A stretch of DNA of 63,570 nucleotides from positions 1 to 63,570 of the IMG/VR virus record IMGVR_UViG_3300025423_000018; one strand, written 5' to 3'. Positions 19,778 through 30,007 of the stretch are shown piece after piece. Source of the DNA: a virus. Lineage: Duplodnaviria; Caudoviricetes. A model generated the notes under the pieces. The model saw only the letters and a list, made by a program, of their open reading frames with translations. It ran no database searches and was not told where the DNA came from. Each line of letters begins with the position of its first letter. Position 1 is the first letter of the stretch. The position numbers were made by a program, and so were the translations under genes.

Positions 19778-20002
19778 GGGGGATCCTTTTTTGATACCGG
19801 GGGGTCACCTAATATAAAGGGGGTGGGGTCTTGGTTGTGGCGAAATTTTAAAAATGGGTATCGGGTGTGCAGAACACAGTGTAGAGATATCTAGGATTCC
19901 TTTCCTACATTTCGGGGGGTGGCACTCGGGTGGGTCTTTGCTTTGAACCCATAACATTGTTAGCCCTAGGTCAATACAGTTTAATTTTCGTGTGAACACA
20001 AT

Positions 20003-20031
20003 TTGATTTTGATTCTTTTTTGTGGTACAAT
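20003..20031 (+). promoter_or_regulatory. Early promoter 1
   Basis: TTGATT-17-TACAAT with TGTGG extension. Confidence 0.75.
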
Positions 20032-20096
20032 ATAGTCATGCAAACGAAGAAACGATTGCATACATTGTTCAACATTAACTAACGAAGGGTTTCATT

Positions 20097-20573
20097 ATGA
20101 CAACAACTATCACTACACACGAAGACGCAACGGTGTTAGACCTTATTAATAACGTCGCTGATGCAGTTAAACGCAAGTACGGCGCAACCAAGGCGCTCGC
20201 AGTTAAGTTGTGCGACACTTTACCCGCAGAGTGGTACAACGTCGAGCATTCGGATCAATCCGAAGAAGCTAAGCCCACGCTCGCAGTTGCACAGTTATTC
20301 CGTGACACACTGCGCAACGCCGGACACAAAAACCCGTCGGTCGAGTGGACACGTGTTCGCAACGAAGGCAGAGTATTCGCCGAAGGCGCTCCCGAATCCG
20401 AAGGCGCCGGTGCAAAGAAGCGCACTCTTAAACTGCGTTTAATTGAGGAGTTGACCAAATTGCACAAAGCCGGTCTCGCTGAGAAGTTCGTTAACGAAGA
20501 CGAAGCCGAAGCATTGACTAGCATTGCTAGCGCATTGATAGCGCTCAATGTTGACCTCAATATGATTAAGTAA
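20097..20573 (+). CDS. First early protein, hypothetical
   Basis: 158 aa downstream of promoter; AAGGG RBS. Confidence 0.8.
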   Translation: MTTTITTHEDATVLDLINNVADAVKRKYGATKALAVKLCDTLPAEWYNVEHSDQSEEAKPTLAVAQLFRDTLRNAGHKNPSVEWTRVRNEGRVFAEGAPESEGAGAKKRTLKLRLIEELTKLHKAGLAEKFVNEDEAEALTSIASALIALNVDLNMIK

Positions 20574-20625
20574 ACGTGAGAAGCCCTAACAATGTTAGGG
20601 CACTCTTCAACCCAAGGGGAAAATT

Positions 20626-20724
20626 ATGGATTATCAAGTATGTCTAGGTTTGTTATTTATTGTGACTATCGTTGCATGGATAAGCGCAGAAGTCACATAC
20701 TATCGGAGCACTAAAAATGATTGA
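20626..20724 (+). CDS. Small membrane peptide (32 aa)
   Basis: AAGGGG RBS; MDYQVCLGLLFIVTIVAWISAEVTYYRSTKND; below ORF-track cutoff. Confidence 0.5.
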   Translation: MDYQVCLGLLFIVTIVAWISAEVTYYRSTKND

Positions 20725-20788
20725 ATTATTTTGCGCAGTGGTTATTGGTATCGTCGCATCAGCAATAATTATATTAACCTCACCCTAA
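20717..20788 (+). CDS. Small membrane peptide (23 aa)
   Basis: GGAG upstream; MIELFCAVVIGIVASAIIILTSP; stop lies within a palindrome. Confidence 0.4.
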   Translation: MIELFCAVVIGIVASAIIILTSP

Positions 20789-20808
20789 CATTGTTAGGCT
20801 TCCCTAGG

Positions 20809-20840
20809 TGCTACACTGAACTCAGTGTAGCATTTTTTTT
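20809..20840 (+). terminator. Rho-independent terminator
   Basis: TGCTACACTG-AACT-CAGTGTAGCA followed by T8. Confidence 0.8.
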
Positions 20841-21300
20841 GCGCTTTTGTCAAGCGCATTTATGCCAGTTCCCATAAGAATGTGCATTGTTACGCCTAAT
20901 GTTACGAAAATTGTGTCTTTGTTATACAACACATCGCTGGAAACCCGCATGAATCCTAGATTGTTACATGTTACGTTTTTTTTGATAATTGAATGAAACT
21001 TTGGGAGCACGAACATGAGGAAGCCCTCGGCAAGAGCATTCTGTGCTACATTTGATTTTCCAAGATCATATAAAAATGAGTATAACAATATAACTTACAT
21101 AACATTTAATTTTTTTTAGTTTAGAATCAAGTACTTACAAGCGTTATGTTTTTTTTCTGCCTATTTTTTAAGCATAACATTGCGAAACACTGTACCACAA
21201 ATAGCGCAACGACACTTCCGATGTAATTCTAGAGCTTGCAGTAATACCCAAGTATTCACTTTTTCAATTCAGTCCCACCCAAGACCAACGAGAGACCAAA
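20841..21300. other. AT-rich non-coding region, candidate replication origin
   Basis: Five TGTTA(C/T) repeats 20888-20975 facing inverted ATAAC(A) repeats 21081-21180; T tracts; IHF consensus at 21125-21137. Confidence 0.45.
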
Positions 21301-21303
21301 GAG

Positions 21304-21332
21304 TTGACATAGGTATAACATTGTGGTACAAT
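21304..21332 (+). promoter_or_regulatory. Early promoter 2
   Basis: TTGACA-17-TACAAT with TGTGG; partial palindrome TAACATTGT in spacer. Confidence 0.85.
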
Positions 21333-21410
21333 ATAGGCTGAAGACAAAAATCTTCTACTCAACAACACTCTCAACCCCTAACAATGTTAGGCAACAACGA
21401 AAGGTTACTT

Positions 21411-21632
21411 ATGGACTGGAAAGAATGTCTTGCGTGCGGTGACGATATCCGCATCGAGCGTTGGCAACTCGGCTATCGCTTCTGTTTATTCTGTGGTGAA
21501 GATCAAGCACGTGCTGAGCGTGCATCGTGGACTATCATTCAAGAGTATACCAAGGGCAACTACATGTTAGTTACACCTGCCAACGTACACACAACACTCA
21601 AGCAGACTAACCCAAAGGAGAATAGAGCGTGA
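21411..21632 (+). CDS. Small Zn-finger protein (DksA/TraR-like CxxC-x-CxxC spacing)
   Basis: CLACGDDI.IERW.LGY.FCLFC; AAGG RBS before ATG 21411. Confidence 0.65.
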   Translation: MDWKECLACGDDIRIERWQLGYRFCLFCGEDQARAERASWTIIQEYTKGNYMLVTPANVHTTLKQTNPKENRA

Positions 21633-21964
21633 GTAAAGATATCCCCAACTATAAAGCACGTGACTACGTGCAACGCAAAGAGCGTTTTGATGGTGCTAAT
21701 GTATACGCAAGATGGCACAGGCGCAGTGATTCACTGCAAAGCAAGCAGACCATATACGTGGTTTACTCGTATGGGAATCACTTCCCCATGTTTGTTTACG
21801 ATGCCGACGCTGACGTATGGGTAGAGAATTCCGATAAGTTCTCGGCAACAACATCAAAACAACGAACACAACTGCATCCATTGTGTGACACATTAAAGCG
21901 TCCGTTAGAAGACGTAAAGTTAGTTGCGGCTTATGGTATCTGTGGACTATTAAATAAGGAGTAA
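21629..21964 (+). CDS. Early hypothetical protein
   Basis: 111 aa; YVVYSYG.HFPM, SATTSKQ. Confidence 0.75.
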   Translation: MSKDIPNYKARDYVQRKERFDGANVYARWHRRSDSLQSKQTIYVVYSYGNHFPMFVYDADADVWVENSDKFSATTSKQRTQLHPLCDTLKRPLEDVKLVAAYGICGLLNKE

Positions 21965-21967
21965 AAA

Positions 21968-22129
21968 ATGACTGAAGGCGACTACTTAAAAGCACTCGAA
22001 CTCATCAAAGATGCTGAGCGCAACATCAGGGAAGGAGATTATGACCTTGCTCATATTGCAGTAATCGAAGCCCTAACATTGCTTGACGAGCGTGAGCGAG
22101 TCATGGGTGAAGAAGATGAGCGAGTTTGA
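21968..22129 (+). CDS. Early hypothetical protein (53 aa)
   Basis: AAGGAG RBS; MTEGDYLKALEL...; below ORF-track cutoff. Confidence 0.6.
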   Translation: MTEGDYLKALELIKDAERNIREGDYDLAHIAVIEALTLLDERERVMGEEDERV

Positions 22130-22313
22130 TGATCGGCCTGAATGGATTGTGTACAGAATAATTGGACATCCGTTCAGTTTATTAGCCACGACCAAGCCAG
22201 TGTGGGACTCGATGATGGAGTATTCACGAAATGAGTACAGGTTCGAAATTGTTGCCGAGAATTTAACGTTCGAAACTGCAACGAAGATGATAAGACTAAC
22301 GAAGGGAGAATAA
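22116..22313 (+). CDS. Early hypothetical protein
   Basis: MSEFDDRPEW..., overlapping upstream stop. Confidence 0.6.
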   Translation: MSEFDDRPEWIVYRIIGHPFSLLATTKPVWDSMMEYSRNEYRFEIVAENLTFETATKMIRLTKGE

Positions 22314-22409
22314 CATGAGCTATAACCGACGGAGCGAATTGATATCACGCGTGATCTTTCTGATTGCGGTTATTGTGATATGTGCAGATTTATTTATCTG
22401 GAGGAGAGG

Positions 22410-22571
22410 ATGAAGCTAACCAAGTACTACGTGACCGGATACAACCCACGGTTCGGCAACTGGAGTGCACAAGTGTACGAATGTGCAACGATGGAGAATG
22501 CGAAACTTAGATTTTCCCTTGAGTTTCCATACCTCAAAACAATTAAGGCTTACGCCCTACGGACAGACTAA
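22410..22571 (+). CDS. Early hypothetical protein
   Basis: GGAGGAG RBS before MKLTKYY. Confidence 0.6.
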   Translation: MKLTKYYVTGYNPRFGNWSAQVYECATMENAKLRFSLEFPYLKTIKAYALRTD

Positions 22572-22575
22572 ATGC

Positions 22576-22604
22576 TTGACTCAGGTATTATTCTGTGGTA
22601 CAAT
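22576..22604 (+). promoter_or_regulatory. Early promoter 3
   Basis: TTGACT-17-TACAAT with TGTGG; -10 overlaps partial palindrome ACAATGTTA. Confidence 0.8.
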
Positions 22605-22694
22605 GTTATTAAAAAAGCTCAATGAGCGAAGTGAATTGTGTTTGTCAGCAACCCCCTAACAATGTTAGGGATATTAACCTAGAAGGAACTAAAA

Positions 22695-23759
22695 ATGTCA
22701 GAAGTAAATTTCGGTAAGTCAATTACATTGAAGCAAGCATCAAAGCTCATTCAATCCAACCCTGAGACTCGTTTTCTACTTGAAGGTGAGCCGGGCATTG
22801 GGAAGTCATCCCTATTAGAGAGTATAGCCAACGGTATGGGCTACGACTATGCCTACATCGATGTGCCGAACATGGACTTGGGCGATATCGCCATGCCTGT
22901 GATCGACCACGACACCAAGACTACCAAGTATTACCCTAATGCTAGGTTCAAGATTCACGAAGGCAAACCACTGGTGATCATGCTCGACGAGTTCACCAAA
23001 GGTGCAGACCCTGTGAAGAACATGCTTCACCCCATGCTAGAGAAGGCAAACCCAAGACTCGGTGACATTCCAATACCCAAGGAGACCATTGTGTTTTTGA
23101 CTGGTAATCTTTCGACCGACGGTGTGGGTGACTCCCTGAAAGCACATAGCCGTAATCGTTTGGTTCCCGTGCGTATCCGCAAACCCGATGCCGATGAGTG
23201 GATCGAGTGGGCGATGGGCAAAGGTATCGAGCCCGAGGTGATTGCATGGGTGAATCGGTTCCCTCATGTGTTGGCTAGCTATACCGATGGTGGATCCGGA
23301 GATAACCCATACATCTATTCACCTAAGAGTAATCAGAAGGCGTTTGTTTCCCCTCGTTCGCTAGAGACTGCATCTAACATTGTTAGGACTCGTAAGGACA
23401 ACGATCCTGATACGGTGATATCCGCATTGACTGGTGCGATCGGTGAAGCAGGTGCTCGGGATATGCAAGCGTACATCGAGTTCTCAGATCAACTGCCGAC
23501 ATGGGAAGCGACGATTGCTAACCCTAAGACTACGCAGATACCAACATCAGCCGGTGCCTGTGCGATTGTGGTATTCGGTGCGATTGCACGGATGACCAAG
23601 GAGAGCATCACTCCATTCATGGAGTATCTACAACGGTTCGATGCCGAGTGGCAAGCCGTGTTTGCGATCAACATTGCGAAGACACCGAGCAAGCAAGCGA
23701 TAGCGTTCAGTTGCAAGGCGTTCAGTGATTGGGTTGCGAAGAATCAAGACTTACTTTAA
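22695..23759 (+). CDS. AAA+ ATPase (MoxR/dynein-related type)
   Basis: GEPGIGKS Walker A, IMLDEF Walker B, TGN sensor 1, SPRS. Confidence 0.9.
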   Translation: MSEVNFGKSITLKQASKLIQSNPETRFLLEGEPGIGKSSLLESIANGMGYDYAYIDVPNMDLGDIAMPVIDHDTKTTKYYPNARFKIHEGKPLVIMLDEFTKGADPVKNMLHPMLEKANPRLGDIPIPKETIVFLTGNLSTDGVGDSLKAHSRNRLVPVRIRKPDADEWIEWAMGKGIEPEVIAWVNRFPHVLASYTDGGSGDNPYIYSPKSNQKAFVSPRSLETASNIVRTRKDNDPDTVISALTGAIGEAGARDMQAYIEFSDQLPTWEATIANPKTTQIPTSAGACAIVVFGAIARMTKESITPFMEYLQRFDAEWQAVFAINIAKTPSKQAIAFSCKAFSDWVAKNQDLL

Positions 23760-23771
23760 TAGGAGCTAACA

Positions 23772-24962
23772 ATGTTAGAGGAACGAAAAATACAGAAGGC
23801 CAAGATCAGCTTGATGCGTAACCCCAAGTTCGCATTGCTCAGTGGTATCTTGATGGTGGGACGTACGTTTGTTGACGATAACACACCGACTGCTAGGACT
23901 AACGGACGTGACGAGTGGTATGGGCGTAAGTTCATCAACGAGTTGACCGAGAAGGAGCTTGCGTTTGTGATTGCACACGAAGCGTCGCACAAGATGTATC
24001 GTCACTTGACTACGTATAAGAAGCTACATGAAGAGAATGCAATGCTGGCGAATGGTGCGTGTGACTACGTGATCAACCTGATGCTACAAGATACAGACCC
24101 CGAGCAAACCGTGATCACCATGCCACGGTGGAAGAGTGGCGAGAAGAAAGGTGAGCCGATGGGCTTGATCGATGAGAAGTATCGAGGTATGAATTCCAAG
24201 CAAGTGTTCGACCTACTGAAGCAGAACGATGATGGATCGGGCGGAGATGGGTTCGATGAGCATGACTGGGAAGAAGCAACGAAAGGCATGACAGAGCAAG
24301 AGAAACGTGAGTTGGCTAGGGATATTGACCAAGCCATAAGACAAGGACTCATGGCACAACACAAAGTTGCCGGTAAGGGTAGAAGTGGTGGTGACCGAGA
24401 GCTTGAAGATCTACTCAATCCCAAGGTGGATTGGCGTGAAGTCTTGCGTGAGTTCGTGAAAGCCACATGCAATGCCAAGGATACTTCATCATGGCGCAGG
24501 GTTAACCGACGTTATCTATCGACTGGTATGTACATGCCGAGCATGATCGGTGAGCGAGTTGGTCATATCGTGATAGCCGTAGATACATCGGGGTCAGTAG
24601 GACAACAAGAATTATCTGAGTTCCTTGGTGAAGTCAAAGGTGTAGCAGAGGAGGTGCATCCTGAGAAAGTTGACTTGATCTACTGGGGTTCAGATGTTGC
24701 AGGTCACGAAGAGTACGAAGGCAATGCGGTGGCTAACATTGTTAGTTCTACAAAGCCCAAGGGCGGTGGAGGTACATCGCCGAGTTGCGTGTCCGAGTAT
24801 CTCGAAGAGAAGAAGATCGTGCCCGAGTGCATCATTGTTCTTACCGACGGATACGTAGGCAGTGACTGGGGTGGCAACTGGACTGCACCAATTCTGTGGA
24901 CTATCGTAGGAGGTAATGATGTCGTTTCACCGAATGGCAAAACAATTCACATCAACAATTAA
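23772..24962 (+). CDS. Metallopeptidase-vWA domain protein (DUF2201-like)
   Basis: TA.TNG, HEASH (HExxH), NxAxD..IN; DTSGS MIDAS, GGGT, LTDGY. Confidence 0.88.
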   Translation: MLEERKIQKAKISLMRNPKFALLSGILMVGRTFVDDNTPTARTNGRDEWYGRKFINELTEKELAFVIAHEASHKMYRHLTTYKKLHEENAMLANGACDYVINLMLQDTDPEQTVITMPRWKSGEKKGEPMGLIDEKYRGMNSKQVFDLLKQNDDGSGGDGFDEHDWEEATKGMTEQEKRELARDIDQAIRQGLMAQHKVAGKGRSGGDRELEDLLNPKVDWREVLREFVKATCNAKDTSSWRRVNRRYLSTGMYMPSMIGERVGHIVIAVDTSGSVGQQELSEFLGEVKGVAEEVHPEKVDLIYWGSDVAGHEEYEGNAVANIVSSTKPKGGGGTSPSCVSEYLEEKKIVPECIIVLTDGYVGSDWGGNWTAPILWTIVGGNDVVSPNGKTIHINN

Positions 24963-24993
24963 TATTAACCGAGCACTAATGAGGAGAGATGAA

Positions 24994-25245
24994 ATGATGA
25001 TTGTAACTATTGGCTATCAAGACTATGCGTTACCAACCAAGGACGCCATAACATTGTTAGAGTTACTGAGCAAGGCAGAGAGGTACGAGGACAGGTACGT
25101 ATCAAAAGATTCCAAGGAGAACACAACAGGCGAAGCGTATCACACGTTTCATGTGTATGAGAATGACACGGTGTTCAATGCCAAGGTTATCCCTAACGAG
25201 AAATACCGAATGGCTAAGCTAGCGGGTAAACCCGAGCGTTCATAA
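24994..25245 (+). CDS. Hypothetical protein
   Basis: GAGGAG RBS before MMIVTIGY. Confidence 0.65.
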   Translation: MMIVTIGYQDYALPTKDAITLLELLSKAERYEDRYVSKDSKENTTGEAYHTFHVYENDTVFNAKVIPNEKYRMAKLAGKPERS

Positions 25246-25263
25246 TTTAACAGGAGAAATCAA

Positions 25264-26115
25264 ATGAGTATTAGTTCATCAGCAGTATTAGTAGAGTTGA
25301 ATATCAGCGTATGGCCAGCCAGTAAAGTTGACCGTGAAACAACTGATCTTGTGAATAGCAACGCATCAGCAGTGCGAGATGCCAGCCAGACCAAGAAGAA
25401 TCTTTTTGCAGGTACGAGCATGCGTAAGGATATCGACAAGTTCGCCGCCCGAGTGCGTCTGTATCACAACCAACACACATTGCCTTGGGCAGACAAGGGT
25501 CAACGACTTCTACCTACTAAGCTATTCATGGAATACAAGCAGACCATGGATGCACACGAGCACACATTCAATATGATGTGCAATAACTTCTATGCCATGT
25601 ATCCTCAGTTGGTACAGGATGCGAGCGTAAGTCTAGGTTCACTCTACAAAGCAAGCGACTATCCCGATATCGAGGAAGTCAAGGGTAAGTTCGGGTTCAG
25701 AAGATCCGTCGATCCAATCCCTGAGAGTGGCGACTTTAGATTAGATGTATCAGCAGAGGACTTAGCGGATTTGAAAAACCACTATGAACAACAATATAGC
25801 AATAGGATAGCCGAAGCGATGCGTGCACCGTGGGAACGTCTGCATACTACGTTAACTGCAATGTCTGAGAAGCTCACCGAACGAGCTAGTGATCAGAAGG
25901 TTCGGTATCACGACAGTCTACTAACGAATGCGCAAGACTTGTGCTCGCTGTTGACCAAGCTCAATGTGACCAATGATCCGAAGTTAGAGGAAGCTAGGCA
26001 AGACCTTGAGCGTGCGTTGGTAGGTGCAGACATGGACGGACTGAAAGAAGATTCGTTCGAGCGTCATGCCTTGAAGAACAAAGTGGATGCCATCATTGGC
26101 AAGTTCAACTGGTAA
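25264..26115 (+). CDS. Helical hypothetical protein downstream of the AAA/vWA pair
   Basis: 283 aa; AGGAG RBS; HTLPW, RLLP, DYP. Confidence 0.8.
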   Translation: MSISSSAVLVELNISVWPASKVDRETTDLVNSNASAVRDASQTKKNLFAGTSMRKDIDKFAARVRLYHNQHTLPWADKGQRLLPTKLFMEYKQTMDAHEHTFNMMCNNFYAMYPQLVQDASVSLGSLYKASDYPDIEEVKGKFGFRRSVDPIPESGDFRLDVSAEDLADLKNHYEQQYSNRIAEAMRAPWERLHTTLTAMSEKLTERASDQKVRYHDSLLTNAQDLCSLLTKLNVTNDPKLEEARQDLERALVGADMDGLKEDSFERHALKNKVDAIIGKFNW

Positions 26116-26285
26116 GGGGTATGTATGAAAGCATGGACTAAGTATCCGAACACATTTGATTCGGATGTTCTTGAGAAGGTTCCACATATTGTGGAAGACC
26201 GAGATGGTAATCAAGTTGAGGTGATGGCGCTTGATCCAATCAACGCTATCGTATTGGTAACTGAAATGATAATGGAGAATTTTAA

Positions 26286-27101
26286 ATGATTGATGCAATG
26301 ATGCTATCCAGTGTTTACATGGAGAAGAATAAGAGTAAGACCGACGTAAAGATGGACTCCAATCTATCTGAGATTGTGGTTGCGTTAGCTACTACTAATC
26401 CGACGTGGTCATTCGAGTGCATACCTCATCAGTTCAGAGATCGTATTGGTAAGGTTTACGTATATGCAGAGGGGCAACAGATTGGTTACCTTAACCGTGA
26501 GTATTCTAACCGAGCCGGTGGTAATGCAACTAGAGTTAGTAAGCCCAATGAGTATAGACGCAACGGAGAATTCACAGTCACGTCCGACAACAAGAAGGCC
26601 ATTCGTGAAGCGAAGAAACGTTTCACGGTTAAGTCTATTAAAGAAATAATAGGCGAGAAGTATAGAGAAGCTAGAGATATAGTGCAACAACAACGATACC
26701 GCAAGGGTAGCAGGGCAGGGGATTGTGTAGGTTCGTTGAGAGATGTTATGCATAAGTACACATTTGAAGAATATCGGGAGCAGTTCGTTTCGTTCTTGAC
26801 CAAGCAACATAACAGTTCACAACTATTAAGTAAGCTCAAGGAGTTTGATGAGATAACTGCGGAGTTCAACGCAATCGACGCAATCGAGGAAAAGGTGAAG
26901 ACAGACGACCATGTACTTATCCATATCAATGGGAGTAAATATATTGTTAAGACTATTGACAATGTACAATCTTATGATGATAATACACTCCCCGAAGAAT
27001 ACAGAGGTAAGCTCGGTATGCTGAAGTTGGTGGAGGTGAACCAGTGTGTATCGGATGTGGGATGCAGAACACATGACGATACGTTCTTAATTGTTACCTA
27101 A
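26286..27101 (+). CDS. Hypothetical protein
   Basis: 271 aa; GGAG RBS; C-terminal LPE...KLGMLKLV. Confidence 0.8.
   Translation: MIDAMMLSSVYMEKNKSKTDVKMDSNLSEIVVALATTNPTWSFECIPHQFRDRIGKVYVYAEGQQIGYLNREYSNRAGGNATRVSKPNEYRRNGEFTVTSDNKKAIREAKKRFTVKSIKEIIGEKYREARDIVQQQRYRKGSRAGDCVGSLRDVMHKYTFEEYREQFVSFLTKQHNSSQLLSKLKEFDEITAEFNAIDAIEEKVKTDDHVLIHINGSKYIVKTIDNVQSYDDNTLPEEYRGKLGMLKLVEVNQCVSDVGCRTHDDTFLIVT
26956..26984 (+). promoter_or_regulatory. Putative internal promoter (second class)
   Basis: TTGACA-17-GATAAT; shares ACTATTGACAAWGT with 29664. Confidence 0.45.
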
Positions 27102-27126
27102 CAATGTTAGGGGTTGAAAGGTATAT

Positions 27127-27312
27127 ATGAATACAGAGATGTTAAAACGTGCAAGGAAACTGTGGGCGGTGGAGTACATGTCCCACTACGAGAACAGGAC
27201 GAACATGCGCAAGTGGGTGAAGGCGGTGCGTGTGGTCAGAGACAATGGGAACTGGCTTTTGTTGAAAAAGGTGGGGAGGGCAAATGAAAATGCAAGCAAC
27301 ACTATCGTTTAA
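27127..27312 (+). CDS. Hypothetical protein
   Basis: 61 aa; AAGG RBS. Confidence 0.65.
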   Translation: MNTEMLKRARKLWAVEYMSHYENRTNMRKWVKAVRVVRDNGNWLLLKKVGRANENASNTIV

Positions 27313-27487
27313 TTACCCCGAGGATGAAGGTAGGTTGGAAGACGCAATGCGTGCAACTGAGTACAAGGAAGCGTTACAACGTGTGGAGAAACGTATACAA
27401 GAACACTTTGACCATGACGACAGTCCTGAGTTCACCATAGCAAGTATCAACACAATAGTAAAGCTAGCATTGAAGGGGCACTTATGA
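27284..27487 (+). CDS. Hypothetical protein
   Basis: 67 aa; GGAGG RBS. Confidence 0.65.
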   Translation: MKMQATLSFNYPEDEGRLEDAMRATEYKEALQRVEKRIQEHFDHDDSPEFTIASINTIVKLALKGHL

Positions 27488-27575
27488 GAACGTTTTGGCT
27501 ATTCTTAATTTGGCTTGAGTTGTGCATCGTCAACTGGAATCTCAAGGACATCGTTCACGTACTGGAGAAAACGAC

Positions 27576-27845
27576 ATGACTGAACAAGAAATGATTGGGA
27601 TTACCAATCAAGCTAGCAAAGAATGGCTTAAAGAATTTCCAACGCCGCAAGAAACGGCGCACCCAGTGCCTAAACGCTTTTTGGAAATCTTTGCCAAACT
27701 AATAGCAGAAAAAGAACGTGAGGCGTGTGCTGAAATTTGTGATGGTTTTTACTTATCATGGATAGACATACAAGGTAGATATGAATTCATGGGTGAGGGA
27801 GCAAGCGAATGTGCTGGTGCAATCCGAGCAAGGGGACAAGAATGA
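27576..27845 (+). CDS. Hypothetical protein (paralog of 32693..32908)
   Basis: FAKLIAEKEREACAEIC...AIRARGQE; GGAG RBS. Confidence 0.7.
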   Translation: MTEQEMIGITNQASKEWLKEFPTPQETAHPVPKRFLEIFAKLIAEKEREACAEICDGFYLSWIDIQGRYEFMGEGASECAGAIRARGQE

Positions 27846-28084
27846 CTAACGAAGAAATCATAGCCAAAATTATGGCTAACCAATGGTGGCCGTTCGACCG
27901 AGTGGATCCCAAGATACTTGAGGAGATACAACGTAGGGATAAGCAGAAAACCGTCGCTGAGATGGAGGAAGCACCGCTATGACTGAACTTGGATTTTTTG
28001 TAGTTATGTTTGCGTTTGTATGCGCAATGATGAACGCAGGTTTGGTGATGTTTTTAATATGGATGATTTACAGGAGCATGAACA

Positions 28085-28276
28085 ATGATTGAATTTACAC
28101 TTACGGAGATAGTCCTATTGGCATGGGCGGGCATTGCCACAGGCATGGCACTGCATTATTGGGAGGAAGATAGGGGTCACAGAAGATTTGTGACTACCTT
28201 GATTGAGAACAAGGGGTTGCGAGAAGAGTTTTATAGCAAGATTGATAAACACATTGAGGAGCACAAAGAATGTTAA
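28085..28276 (+). CDS. Small membrane protein
   Basis: N-terminal TM; AGGAG RBS. Confidence 0.6.
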   Translation: MIEFTLTEIVLLAWAGIATGMALHYWEEDRGHRRFVTTLIENKGLREEFYSKIDKHIEEHKEC

Positions 28277-28533
28277 ATAGTATAAAACAACTGATAAGTG
28301 CAAGTAAATCACAAGAAGTTTTACATGCAAGAAACCCCAACGAATTACGCACAGATACCAACGTGAAGTTTGGTGTAATCCAAGCGTTGAATGGCAAGAT
28401 CATTGAGATCAGTACGTACAAACCCAACCACAATGGGCCTGACTGGACACACCAATGCTATATCGTAAAAGACGAAGAGACGCTAGCAGAAGCTATGGCG
28501 ACTGTGATTACGATGAAAGGGCTAGAGCAATGA
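28270..28533 (+). CDS. Hypothetical protein
   Basis: 87 aa, translationally coupled. Confidence 0.65.
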   Translation: MLNSIKQLISASKSQEVLHARNPNELRTDTNVKFGVIQALNGKIIEISTYKPNHNGPDWTHQCYIVKDEETLAEAMATVITMKGLEQ

Positions 28534-28775
28534 AGAAATGGGATGGATTCGACGAAGCGATTCTTGGGCCAGCAAGCGTTTGGAATGGCAATACTAGAGT
28601 AGAGGTATTGGTTTACGATGGCGATGCTATGCGAGATATTTTGATGAAGCGTGACTCCATGAGCATGGAAGATGCACGTGAGTTTATTGAATACAATCTT
28701 GAGGGCGCCTACATCGGTGAGGATACGCCTGTTATCGTATGGACAAATGATTTATATTGGGAGGAGGAAGAATGA
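28530..28775 (+). CDS. Hypothetical acidic protein
   Basis: DGFDEAILG, VYD, EDAREFIEYN.EGAYIGE.TP. Confidence 0.7.
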   Translation: MKKWDGFDEAILGPASVWNGNTRVEVLVYDGDAMRDILMKRDSMSMEDAREFIEYNLEGAYIGEDTPVIVWTNDLYWEEEE

Positions 28776-28987
28776 TATTCGACCGTATCGACGAGTTGAA
28801 GACTGGAATAGAAAAGAAAAAGCATGGGCGGGGTCTTGGTAAGAAACCTGCGCTTGTGCACTTGAGCTTGCGCTTGCCGAAAGATGTGATGGATTTTTTT
28901 GATTCACGCTATCCGTATGCAAAGCAAGCCAAGATACGAGAAATTCTTACTGATTATGTAAACAAGGAACTAACCAATGAAAAGTAG
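28772..28987 (+). CDS. Ribbon-helix-helix (BrnA-antitoxin-like) DNA-binding protein
   Basis: GRG.GKKP, LSLRLPKDVMDFF, QAKIREIL. Confidence 0.6.
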   Translation: MIFDRIDELKTGIEKKKHGRGLGKKPALVHLSLRLPKDVMDFFDSRYPYAKQAKIREILTDYVNKELTNEK

Positions 28988-29480
28988 AGCACAAATCGTA
29001 CGTGAGTACATAAACGCAAACCCCGAAGCTACAACTGCGGAAGTAGCCAAGAAGTGCAAAGTCACGACTCAGTACGTGTATCAAGTCAAGTCTGACGAGA
29101 AGAAAAGACTAGCGAAAAAGCGAGTGAAGATCACTGCAACCCAAGCTGAAGTGGCTAAGAGAATGGGTGTACCTCTTTCGGTATACGCAAATAATTTATT
29201 ACCCAACGGAAAATTAAAAACAAGAATGCAAGCGTCATTCGATAGAGAACCGCCTACCATTACGATGGAAGAGCCAAAGGCCGACCCAGTCAATCACCCA
29301 CCGCATTACAAGACTGGCGGTATTGAGACTATCGACTTTATTGAAGCGAAAGAGTTAGGCTATCACTTGGGCAACGTTATCAAGTACGTTACTAGAGCCA
29401 AGCACAAGGGCAATGAACTTGAAGATCTTAAGAAAGCACAATGGTATCTCGAACGTGCTATTATGAAGCTACATATTTGA
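28977..29480 (+). CDS. HTH + DUF3310 (T7 gp1.7/SaV-like) protein
   Basis: N-terminal NPEATTAEVAKKC HTH; DPVNHPPHY..GGIETIDFI, GNVIKYV.RA.HKG, EDLKKAQWYL. Confidence 0.85.
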   Translation: MKSRAQIVREYINANPEATTAEVAKKCKVTTQYVYQVKSDEKKRLAKKRVKITATQAEVAKRMGVPLSVYANNLLPNGKLKTRMQASFDREPPTITMEEPKADPVNHPPHYKTGGIETIDFIEAKELGYHLGNVIKYVTRAKHKGNELEDLKKAQWYLERAIMKLHI

Positions 29481-29620
29481 AGCGGGTTGCTTAAATCACG
29501 TGTAAGGAAACCTTGCAGATGCGAACTTATACGTGCTACGTACGTCCCCGCTTTAAAGATTTTTGACGTATGTAGACCTTTCCAACCATGAGGGGGGCGT
29601 GGAATCTGCATAACCCCCCA
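29480..29620 (+). ncRNA. Candidate doubly pseudoknotted structured RNA
   Basis: Five non-overlapping helices of 6-11 bp (see findings); wobble pairs are G-U on the + strand. Confidence 0.6.
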
Positions 29621-29663
29621 ACCACCCCTAACAATGTTAGGGTAAATATTTTATATAATACTA

Positions 29664-29691
29664 TTGACAAAGTCTAATGTACCACTATACT
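29664..29691 (+). promoter_or_regulatory. Promoter of replication module (probably leaderless transcript)
   Basis: TTGACA-16-TATACT; ATG 7 nt downstream with no RBS. Confidence 0.7.
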
Positions 29692-29698
29692 ACGGTAC

Positions 29699-30007
29699 AT
29701 GGCACAAACCCCCGAAGCAAAAGTTAAAAAGCAAATCAAGGCCACCCTTGAAAAGCATGGTGTGTATTACGCTATGCCTATCGGCACAGGCTTTGGTAAT
29801 TCAGGCGTACCCGATTTTCTTTGTTGCGTGAACGGCAAGTTCTTGGCGATTGAAGCCAAGGCAGGGAACAATCAACCGACTGCGTTACAAATAAAACACC
29901 TCAACGATATTACTAGAGCAGGGGGACAGTCACTTGTTGCCAACGAGAACAGTTTGTTTGTGTTAGAAACTGTAATTGAAAACTTAAAAGGAACTAATCA
30001 TGAGTGA
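29699..30007 (+). CDS. VRR-NUC / Holliday junction resolvase-like nuclease
   Basis: TPE..V, GVPD, FLAIEAK, PT.LQ. Confidence 0.88.
   Translation: MAQTPEAKVKKQIKATLEKHGVYYAMPIGTGFGNSGVPDFLCCVNGKFLAIEAKAGNNQPTALQIKHLNDITRAGGQSLVANENSLFVLETVIENLKGTNHE

Follow-up and report, generated by a model that had tools for sequence, protein, structure and literature searches.

The DNA examined here, called the window in what follows, is the complete IMG/VR virus record IMGVR_UViG_3300025423_000018 (63,570 bases, completeness rating 100%), from an uncultivated phage that is remote from cultured phages: its best cultured DNA polymerase match is 36% identical. Within a plus-strand block of early and replication genes annotated in the window, a gap of 218 nt separates the TGA codon (29478-29480) of a cistron encoding a DUF3310 protein from the ATG codon (29699) of a small nuclease gene. 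This gap contains a predicted RNA domain of about 145 nt with six helices, read from the plus strand and apparently part of the early or replication-module transcript of the 63.6-kb phage. Comparison with its relatives makes it almost certain that the element is a structured RNA, and it belongs to no catalogued RNA family. The positions of its parts and of the neighboring features are collected in Table 1.

Table 1. Features of the element and its surroundings, in window coordinates
Feature	Position	Strand	Description
Upstream cistron	28977..29480	+	167 aa; DUF3310 domain, weak N-terminal helix-turn-helix; PF11753 E 7.8e-24; PHROG 'nucleotide kinase' families
Whole RNA element	29476..29624	+	full-length match, positions 1-149 of 149; 192-195 bits with models R1 and R3, 154 bits with R2
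P1, AAGCGGG/CCCGCTT	29480-86 with 29547-53	+	stem 1 of the first H-type pseudoknot
P1 3' strand	29547..29553	+	situated within the P3 loop
P2 hairpin, CACGTGTAAG/CTTATACGTG	29497-506 with 29526-35	+	one G-U pair; 19-nt loop L2 at 29507-25
Kissing (loop-loop) helix, TGCAGAT/ATCTGCA	29514-20 with 29604-10	+	7 bp; 5' strand in L2, 3' strand in loop 3 of the second pseudoknot
P3, CTACGTACGTC/GACGTATGTAG	29536-46 with 29565-75	+	one G-U pair; stem 2 of the first pseudoknot; abuts P2 and P1
Joiner J3/5	29576..29585	+	pyrimidine-rich; ACCU start kept in alignments
P5, CCATG/CGTGG	29586-90 with 29598-602	+	newly found; stem 1 of the second H-type pseudoknot
P4, G6/C6	29592-97 with 29614-19	+	G6 inside the P5 hairpin loop
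Palindrome CCCTAACAATGTTAGGG	29626..29642	.	last of about ten copies in 19949-29642; outside the conserved RNA
Promoter-like site, TTGACA-16-TATACT	29664..29691	+	11/12 consensus matches
Downstream cistron	29699..30007	+	102 aa; VRR-NUC/Hjc-like endonuclease; PHROG 93 'endonuclease' E 1.5e-14
Palindrome sites	19949, 20584, 20783, 21376, 22654, 23372, 23764, 25046, 27096, 29626	.	window scan

Architecture and covariation of the element

A preliminary description of this locus, based on the sequence alone, had proposed a functional RNA with five helices and two pseudoknots that could be assigned to no known family, and had offered a ribozyme, a nuclease-resistant 3' element and a protein decoy as candidate roles. 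The five helices named there, P1 to P4 and the loop-loop or kissing helix, are all present at the stated coordinates when read directly from the sequence; no base is used twice, both imperfect pairs are G-U on the plus strand, and the strands of P2, P3 and P1 abut with 0 nt between them. The count itself needs correction, since a further helix, P5, had been overlooked: the element has six helices and three pseudoknot-type contacts. P1 and P3 make up a first H-type pseudoknot with the hairpin P2 inserted in its loop 1. The 5' strand of P1 and the TGA codon of the upstream cistron overlap, and P1 can be extended in the window to 11 bp (29476-29486 with 29547-29557) and then includes the stop codon. 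Because the run of six G lies within the hairpin loop of P5, P5 and P4 form a second H-type pseudoknot, whose loop 3 carries the kissing sequence. In both P1/P3 and P5/P4 the loop of stem 1 supplies a strand of stem 2, as the H-type definition demands, and covariation backs the pairing.

Thermodynamic folding distinguishes the two strands. The plus strand folds with -53.7 kcal/mol (z = -2.99, 1 of 200 shuffles being equally good), against z = -0.77 and 44 equally good shuffles of 200 for the minus strand. RNAfold recovers P2, P3 and P4; P1 and the kissing helix cannot be drawn since they are pseudoknotted. The minimum free energy fold also draws a UUGC/GCGA hairpin within L2, which was rejected: it is absent from members of the GAUAGAU and GGCUGAU types, whereas the kissing helix persists there. 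The P4 loop (29598-29613) of the window, like that of its nearest relatives, reads GTG/ATG GAA TCT GCA TAA, a mini-frame of four codons behind a G-rich run; it is probably meaningless, ACG being found at the same place in other members.

Homologous elements, collected as described in the next section, carry the case for a structured RNA. The proposal of a functional RNA outside known families is supported: each helix shows compensatory changes, the element is specific to the sense strand, and no Rfam 15 model accounts for it. Two alignments were built so that helices could be examined where they had not been fitted, A3 (54 sequences) using P2, P3 and P4 only, and A4 using P1, P2 and P5. Already in an early alignment of eight sequences, 100% of the cells paired and both sides differed at five pairs, two each in P1 and P2 and one in P3. 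In A3, 93.6% of 2054 cells pair, compared with 66.7 ± 0.7% after shuffling and 40-52% in slid registers, and both sides have changed at 31 of the 39 pairs. The covariation score is strong, at 0.691 versus 0.188, and not one of 500 shuffles reached any of the five measures used. The top 18 column pairs by mutual information with average product correction (APC) are all proposed pairs, and the same scan yielded no convincing tertiary pairs beyond the six helices.

The individual helices are supported as follows. Changes on both sides affect all 10 pairs of P2 (90.8% of cells pairing in A3) and all 11 of P3 (94.4%). The kissing helix was left out of the A3 model, and there 98.6% of its cells pair, with both-side changes at four of seven pairs; at least seven versions occur (TGCAGAT/ATCTGCA, TGTAGAT/ATCTACA, GATAGAT/ATCTATC, GGCAGAT/ATCTGCC, GGTAGAT/ATCTACC, TACAGAT/ATCTGTA and GGCTGAT/ATCAGCC). 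Of 172 cells at the four positions of this helix that vary, 130 pair, as against a mean of 100.6 ± 3.4 with permuted partners and a maximum of 114 in 2000 permutations. For P1, the unfitted comparison of the 5' flank with the P3 loop gave a mean best helix of 7.45 (permuted 5.70 ± 0.17, maximum 6.29); in A4, 95.4% of its cells pair and all seven pairs have changed on both sides. For P5, 49 of 52 sequences have a 5-bp helix at one constant location, and 15 versions of the 3' strand occur; the mean best helix is 4.92 versus 3.35 ± 0.11 for permuted partners, and four of five pairs show both-side changes. Its pairing amounts to 98.3% of cells in A4 and to 82.5% in A3, in which the sequences of a subgroup with an extended linker are misaligned. 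P4 pairs in 100% of cells and is nearly invariant, G-C having changed to A-U three times and to C-G twice in A3. Retrieval contributes to this invariance, since the pattern that yielded about half of the sequences demands G6 and C6; G6:C6 is still the rule in the set retrieved through flanking proteins.

G-U pairs are frequent, occurring in 13-18 of the 54 sequences at five P2 positions (A3), and they fix the strand, since each would be an A-C mismatch on the opposite one. About 20 unpaired bases are invariant across the family, and the 3' pseudoknot is the most conserved part of the element. In a high-GC subgroup (L230, L178, L176, L191, L194 and L174) a local 5' hairpin replaces P1, P3 is a short plain hairpin, the P1/P3 pseudoknot is missing, and the linker between P5 and G6 measures 5 nt compared with 1-2 nt elsewhere. 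As this subgroup does without the first knot, the minimal core consists of P2 with its loop, P3, the P5/P4 knot and the kissing helix.

Distribution and genomic setting

Relatives were gathered in two ways. Retrieval through both flanking proteins gave 160 protein-anchored loci (2 x 80), which were compared by blastn; covariance model R1, containing only P2, P3 and P4, found full-length matches (1-149) in 16 of 80 and 28 of 80 of these loci, 44 of 160 in total, with E values from 1e-8 to 1e-61, and 52 of 80 nuclease-gene loci were without the RNA. A scan of viral contigs for the motif GGGGGGC-N4-AATCT-N5-7-CCCCCC produced at least 117 stretches; 80 of these loci were searched with model R2, which matched in 69 (66 at E<=1.3e-9), the matches having a GC content of 43-65%. 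Combined, the matches listed number 111 and include 54 distinct element sequences. All model matches lie on the sense strand of the flanking genes, and R1, R2 and R3 each find a single copy in the window. The family is thus present in many viral contigs, with the window copy as its founding example here.

By blastn, some contigs carry a near-identical copy of the element between flanking genes that have clearly diverged further. Between the window and three close relatives (L003, L082 and L084), nucleotide identity is 96-99% for the element versus 85-93% for the DUF3310 and nuclease genes. Judged from these identities, the element is conserved as well as or better than its flanking genes and is evidently under stronger constraint than they are.

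Searches for known families returned nothing. The 4227 models of Rfam 15 gave no match anywhere in the window at gathering score, none in 29300-29800 with the cutoff relaxed to E<=10, and none at E<=1 in 12 loci (62,481 bases) containing diverse family members, and ARAGORN found no tRNA or tmRNA gene in the window. Blastn in distant mode gave no match for 29300-29800 among 50,697 cultured phage records. The nearest cultured homologue of the nuclease is that of Pseudomonas phage Rollin (46% amino acid identity), and the 6.3 kb around the Rollin gene contain no model match at E<=10. In 185,579 bacterial and archaeal species genomes the P5/P4 motif pattern occurs in 19 stretches, about chance by a rough estimate, of which three exceed 25 bits with R2. 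Two of these were rejected as members, L293 being a plain hairpin and both L293 and L279 lacking the L2 motif; the scanned genomes hold no convincing cellular copy, the third stretch (L281, cut by a contig end) and other weak matches having been left unread. On this sequence evidence the family looks phage-specific and confined to uncultivated phages. We found no description of this RNA in the literature; an automated catalogue of 8,495 unnamed structured-RNA candidates from IMG/VR may include it (PMC10690425).

The element is tied to the stop codon in front of it. In 48 of 53 distinct members the upstream stop ends -10 to +14 nt from the model start; in many it is within P1, for instance TAAGGGGG with CCCCCTTA or TAG-GGGG with CCCC-CTA, and P1 covaries with the identity of the stop codon. 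The gene that ends there encodes a DUF3310 protein in 33 of 54 members and, in others, a DUF2201-VWA protein, an AAA ATPase, an Hjc-like nuclease, a zinc-finger protein or a Rap1a-like protein, a variety that argues for a self-contained module. A nuclease gene starts within 150 nt downstream in 35 of the 54.

Three layouts were counted in the 52 distinct members with enough 3' flank. In the first (13 members) the stop is followed by the element, the palindrome, a canonical terminator 20-30 nt past the element, the TTGACAAAGTC promoter and the next gene; in the second (15, including the window) the order is the same without a clear terminator; in the third (24) a C/A-rich linker and a Shine-Dalgarno (SD) sequence lead to the gene, with no terminator nearby, and among nuclease-linked members of this layout the start codon is 13-22 nt past the model end with the SD sequence between. 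A TTGACA promoter for the next gene thus stands within 170 nt downstream in 28 of 52 members, making the element the last conserved structure of the upstream transcription unit there. One close relative, L004 (2940-3070), has the DUF3310 gene, stop, palindrome, terminator, promoter and nuclease gene without any element, which indicates that the element is an optional insert in the 3' untranslated region (UTR), directly behind the stop codon. In the clade of L231, L182, L187, L213 and L186 the palindrome is found 5' of the element, and the 5' strand of P1 overlaps with the right arm of the palindrome, so that palindrome hairpin and P1 would be mutually exclusive in the RNA.

Coding explanations were dismissed. 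A recoding signal for stop read-through or frameshifting does not agree with in-frame extensions ranging from 0 to 146 codons or with element lengths that fall 13, 19 and 21 by remainder modulo 3, and the open frame of 36 codons behind the TGA of the window is not conserved. An array of non-coding RNAs associated with a reverse transcriptase (bioRxiv 10.64898/2026.09.22.753630) was also rejected, the window having no RVT_1 match and the RNA being single-copy.

Homologues of the downstream nuclease are annotated as VRR-NUC endonucleases or Holliday-junction resolvases, one member of the family matching Pfam Hjc, and farther 3' Pfam and PHROG identify a family A DNA polymerase, an exonuclease, a helicase and a primase. 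The promoter-like site, with TTGACAAAGTC kept in several clades, ends in the window 7 nt before the nuclease ATG with no SD sequence there (29664-29701), a geometry that suggests a leaderless nuclease mRNA. The same arrangement is seen in the L003, L030 and L231 types; the L104 type has a leader of about 30 nt with an SD sequence. The 17-bp palindrome CCCTAACA(A/T)TGTTAGGG, repeated about ten times, is restricted in the window to the plus-strand early region (18 strand-matches with <=3 mismatches versus 0.15 expected). A start codon lies 10-25 nt 3' of most copies, and one copy includes the ATG of the gene at 23772. Related phages have co-varied versions, TGACATTTGTCA and TTACATTTGTAA; the palindrome probably serves a phage regulator as operator or forms a hairpin in intercistronic RNA.

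Weighing possible functions

Presumed co-transcription with the genes, self-containment, independence of neighbors and varied GC content together suggest that the element acts by itself or through a partner that is widely conserved. The reading that we tentatively place first is that of a stable, nuclease-resistant domain of a 3' UTR or intercistronic region; a ribozyme, an antiterminator and a riboswitch follow in that order. An autonomous module directly behind the stop codon of a cistron would give the message a compact and mechanically stiff knot, at its 3' end or between two cistrons. The knot would halt 3'-to-5' exonucleases, and the upstream message would then persist with the folded domain as a stable RNA, perhaps bound by a conserved phage or host factor through the invariant loops. 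The position behind the stop codon, and as last conserved structure in 28 of 52 members, suits such a domain best, and the part that a 3' exonuclease would encounter first, the 3' pseudoknot, is also the most conserved. Several points weigh against this reading. In the 24 members of the third layout a ribosome-binding site and the next gene follow directly, and the element would be a 3' end there only after mRNA processing; in the 13 of 52 with a strong terminator behind it a further barrier looks redundant. Simple GC hairpins are normally sufficient as 3' barriers. The role leaves some 20 invariant unpaired bases, the invariant G6:C6 helix and the elaborate fold unexplained, and this keeps the other readings alive. 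Neither a partner protein nor a target was identified; the unpaired segments show chance-level complementarity to the rest of the window (8-9-mers, each at one to four sites).

A new class of self-cleaving ribozyme, cutting the polycistronic early transcript at this junction, is an appreciably weaker candidate. Small ribozymes are typically of this size and share the double-pseudoknot complexity, an invariant helix and invariant junction bases, the element sits between co-directional phage genes of whatever identity, and a start exactly at the upstream stop codon would suit cleavage at its own 5' edge; but no Rfam ribozyme model matches even at E<=10, the strand order is unlike the hepatitis delta virus (HDV) fold, and in the terminator layout cleavage would merely strip a protective terminator from the message. 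Taken more broadly, a new catalytic or self-organizing RNA, either such a ribozyme processing early transcripts or one whose 7-bp helix is formed between molecules to give dimers or rings like pRNA, ROOL and GOLLD, comes closer to the nuclease-resistant domain in our estimate while still being improbable; covariation does not separate an intramolecular from an intermolecular kissing helix. A cis-acting processive antiterminator would modify RNA polymerase so that upstream transcripts read into the replication genes, as do put of HK022 and EAR of Bacillus, structured nascent RNAs with this activity (PMC8632103). The sense-strand position inside an operon, 20-30 nt before a canonical intrinsic terminator in 13 of 52 members, speaks for it, as does the indifference to neighbors across element GC contents of 43-65%, expected for a universal target such as RNA polymerase. 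We nevertheless think it rather unlikely, since no described antiterminator RNA is similar (no Rfam match), the window element lies 3' of nine of the ten repeated palindromic hairpins, 24 of 52 members have no terminator nearby, and the relative L004 keeps the same terminator and promoter without the element.

Less probable again is a riboswitch or protein-binding operator controlling the downstream nuclease and DNA polymerase genes, although the proximity of the nuclease gene in 35 of 54 members, the short SD-containing spacer of promoter-less clades, and conserved unpaired bases and pseudoknots reminiscent of aptamers would agree with it. A conserved fold with invariant unpaired bases is present as in riboswitches, and a 5' UTR expression platform is not. 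Gene-specific control of this kind would fit the third layout and is contradicted by the first two, in which a promoter separates the element from the gene (28 of 52, the window included), together with a terminator in 13; moreover, no alternative pairing with terminator or SD sequence was found, the element abuts the upstream stop codon instead of following a promoter, and the downstream gene differs in several members. That the conserved structure is single-stranded DNA, for example a replication origin or priming signal, is very improbable. Its location among replication genes (nuclease, polymerase A, exonuclease, helicase and primase) and an AT-rich stretch 3' of the element in the window would favor it, but most members lack that stretch, G-U(T) wobbles are very common at several positions (13-18 of 54 sequences at five P2 pairs), pseudoknots and a kissing helix are unusual for such signals, and close relatives may be without the element entirely.

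Comparison with known structured RNAs

The element is optional among close relatives yet more constrained than the genes around it. Each of its knots follows the order of classical H-type pseudoknots such as those of the T4 gene 32 leader and of frameshift signals, S1, L1, S2, S1', L3, S2', with 0-3 nt at the S2/S1' junction; this order occurs twice (P1/P3 and P5/P4). The difference is that the two knots are joined by a 7-bp helix from the loop of a hairpin embedded in L1 of one to L3 of the other, and that, unlike frameshift pseudoknots, the element has neither a slippery site nor a conserved read-through frame. We know of no described RNA with two H-type knots joined by such a loop-loop helix, and the clasped architecture matches no catalogued family. 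Complex pseudoknot-rich RNAs with comparable covariation have usually proved to be ribozymes, riboswitches or parts of RNA-protein machines. For RNA biology the element is a well-defined new target provided with natural compensatory mutants; for phage biology it marks an unexplained control point at the start of a replication module.

Double-pseudoknot self-cleaving ribozymes are common in phage intergenic regions, and the element shares with HDV-like, twister and glmS ribozymes a compact build, nested or crossing helices and invariant junction bases. An HDV-like fold was rejected. The HDV order is P1, P2, P3 hairpin, P1', P4 hairpin, P2', a nested double pseudoknot; the element has P1, P2 hairpin, P3, P1', P3' and then the P5/P4 knot, its long-range strand coming after the hairpin and not before it. 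Should it cleave itself, it would represent a new ribozyme class.

Other phage RNAs offer partial parallels. The phi29 pRNA is a phage-borne structured RNA with covarying loop-loop pairs, as are ROOL and GOLLD (PMC12286853). Their loop-loop contacts are intermolecular, none of the three is homologous to the element, and ROOL and GOLLD are far larger. The put and EAR RNAs resemble it as structured nascent sense RNAs in phage or operon transcripts, indifferent to neighbors and upstream of terminators, the last of these seen in 13 of 52 members of the family (PMC8632103 for put and EAR). In the same account put is a double hairpin of about 65 nt, compared with about 145 nt, six helices and three pseudoknot contacts here, and neither sequence nor model similarity exists between them.

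The ToxI antitoxins of type III toxin-antitoxin systems are likewise pseudoknotted RNAs located just 5' of a small nuclease gene, with a terminator between in some members. They consist of tandem repeats of about 35 nt that are cut by an RNase toxin, whereas the element is single-copy and its neighbor is a DNA nuclease of the PD-(D/E)XK type; this identity was rejected, as no tandem repeats exist and the models match once in the window and once per locus. The exonuclease-resistant RNAs (xrRNAs) of flaviviruses are pseudoknotted as well and stand right after the stop codon at the start of the 3' UTR, where they resist exonucleases mechanically, as is proposed for the element. Their ring around the 5' end stops an enzyme moving 5'-to-3'; the direction proposed here is 3'-to-5', and the element has no three-way junction and no homology to them. 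Should it stop the 3' exonucleases of bacteria, phages would have in it a counterpart of these viral xrRNAs.

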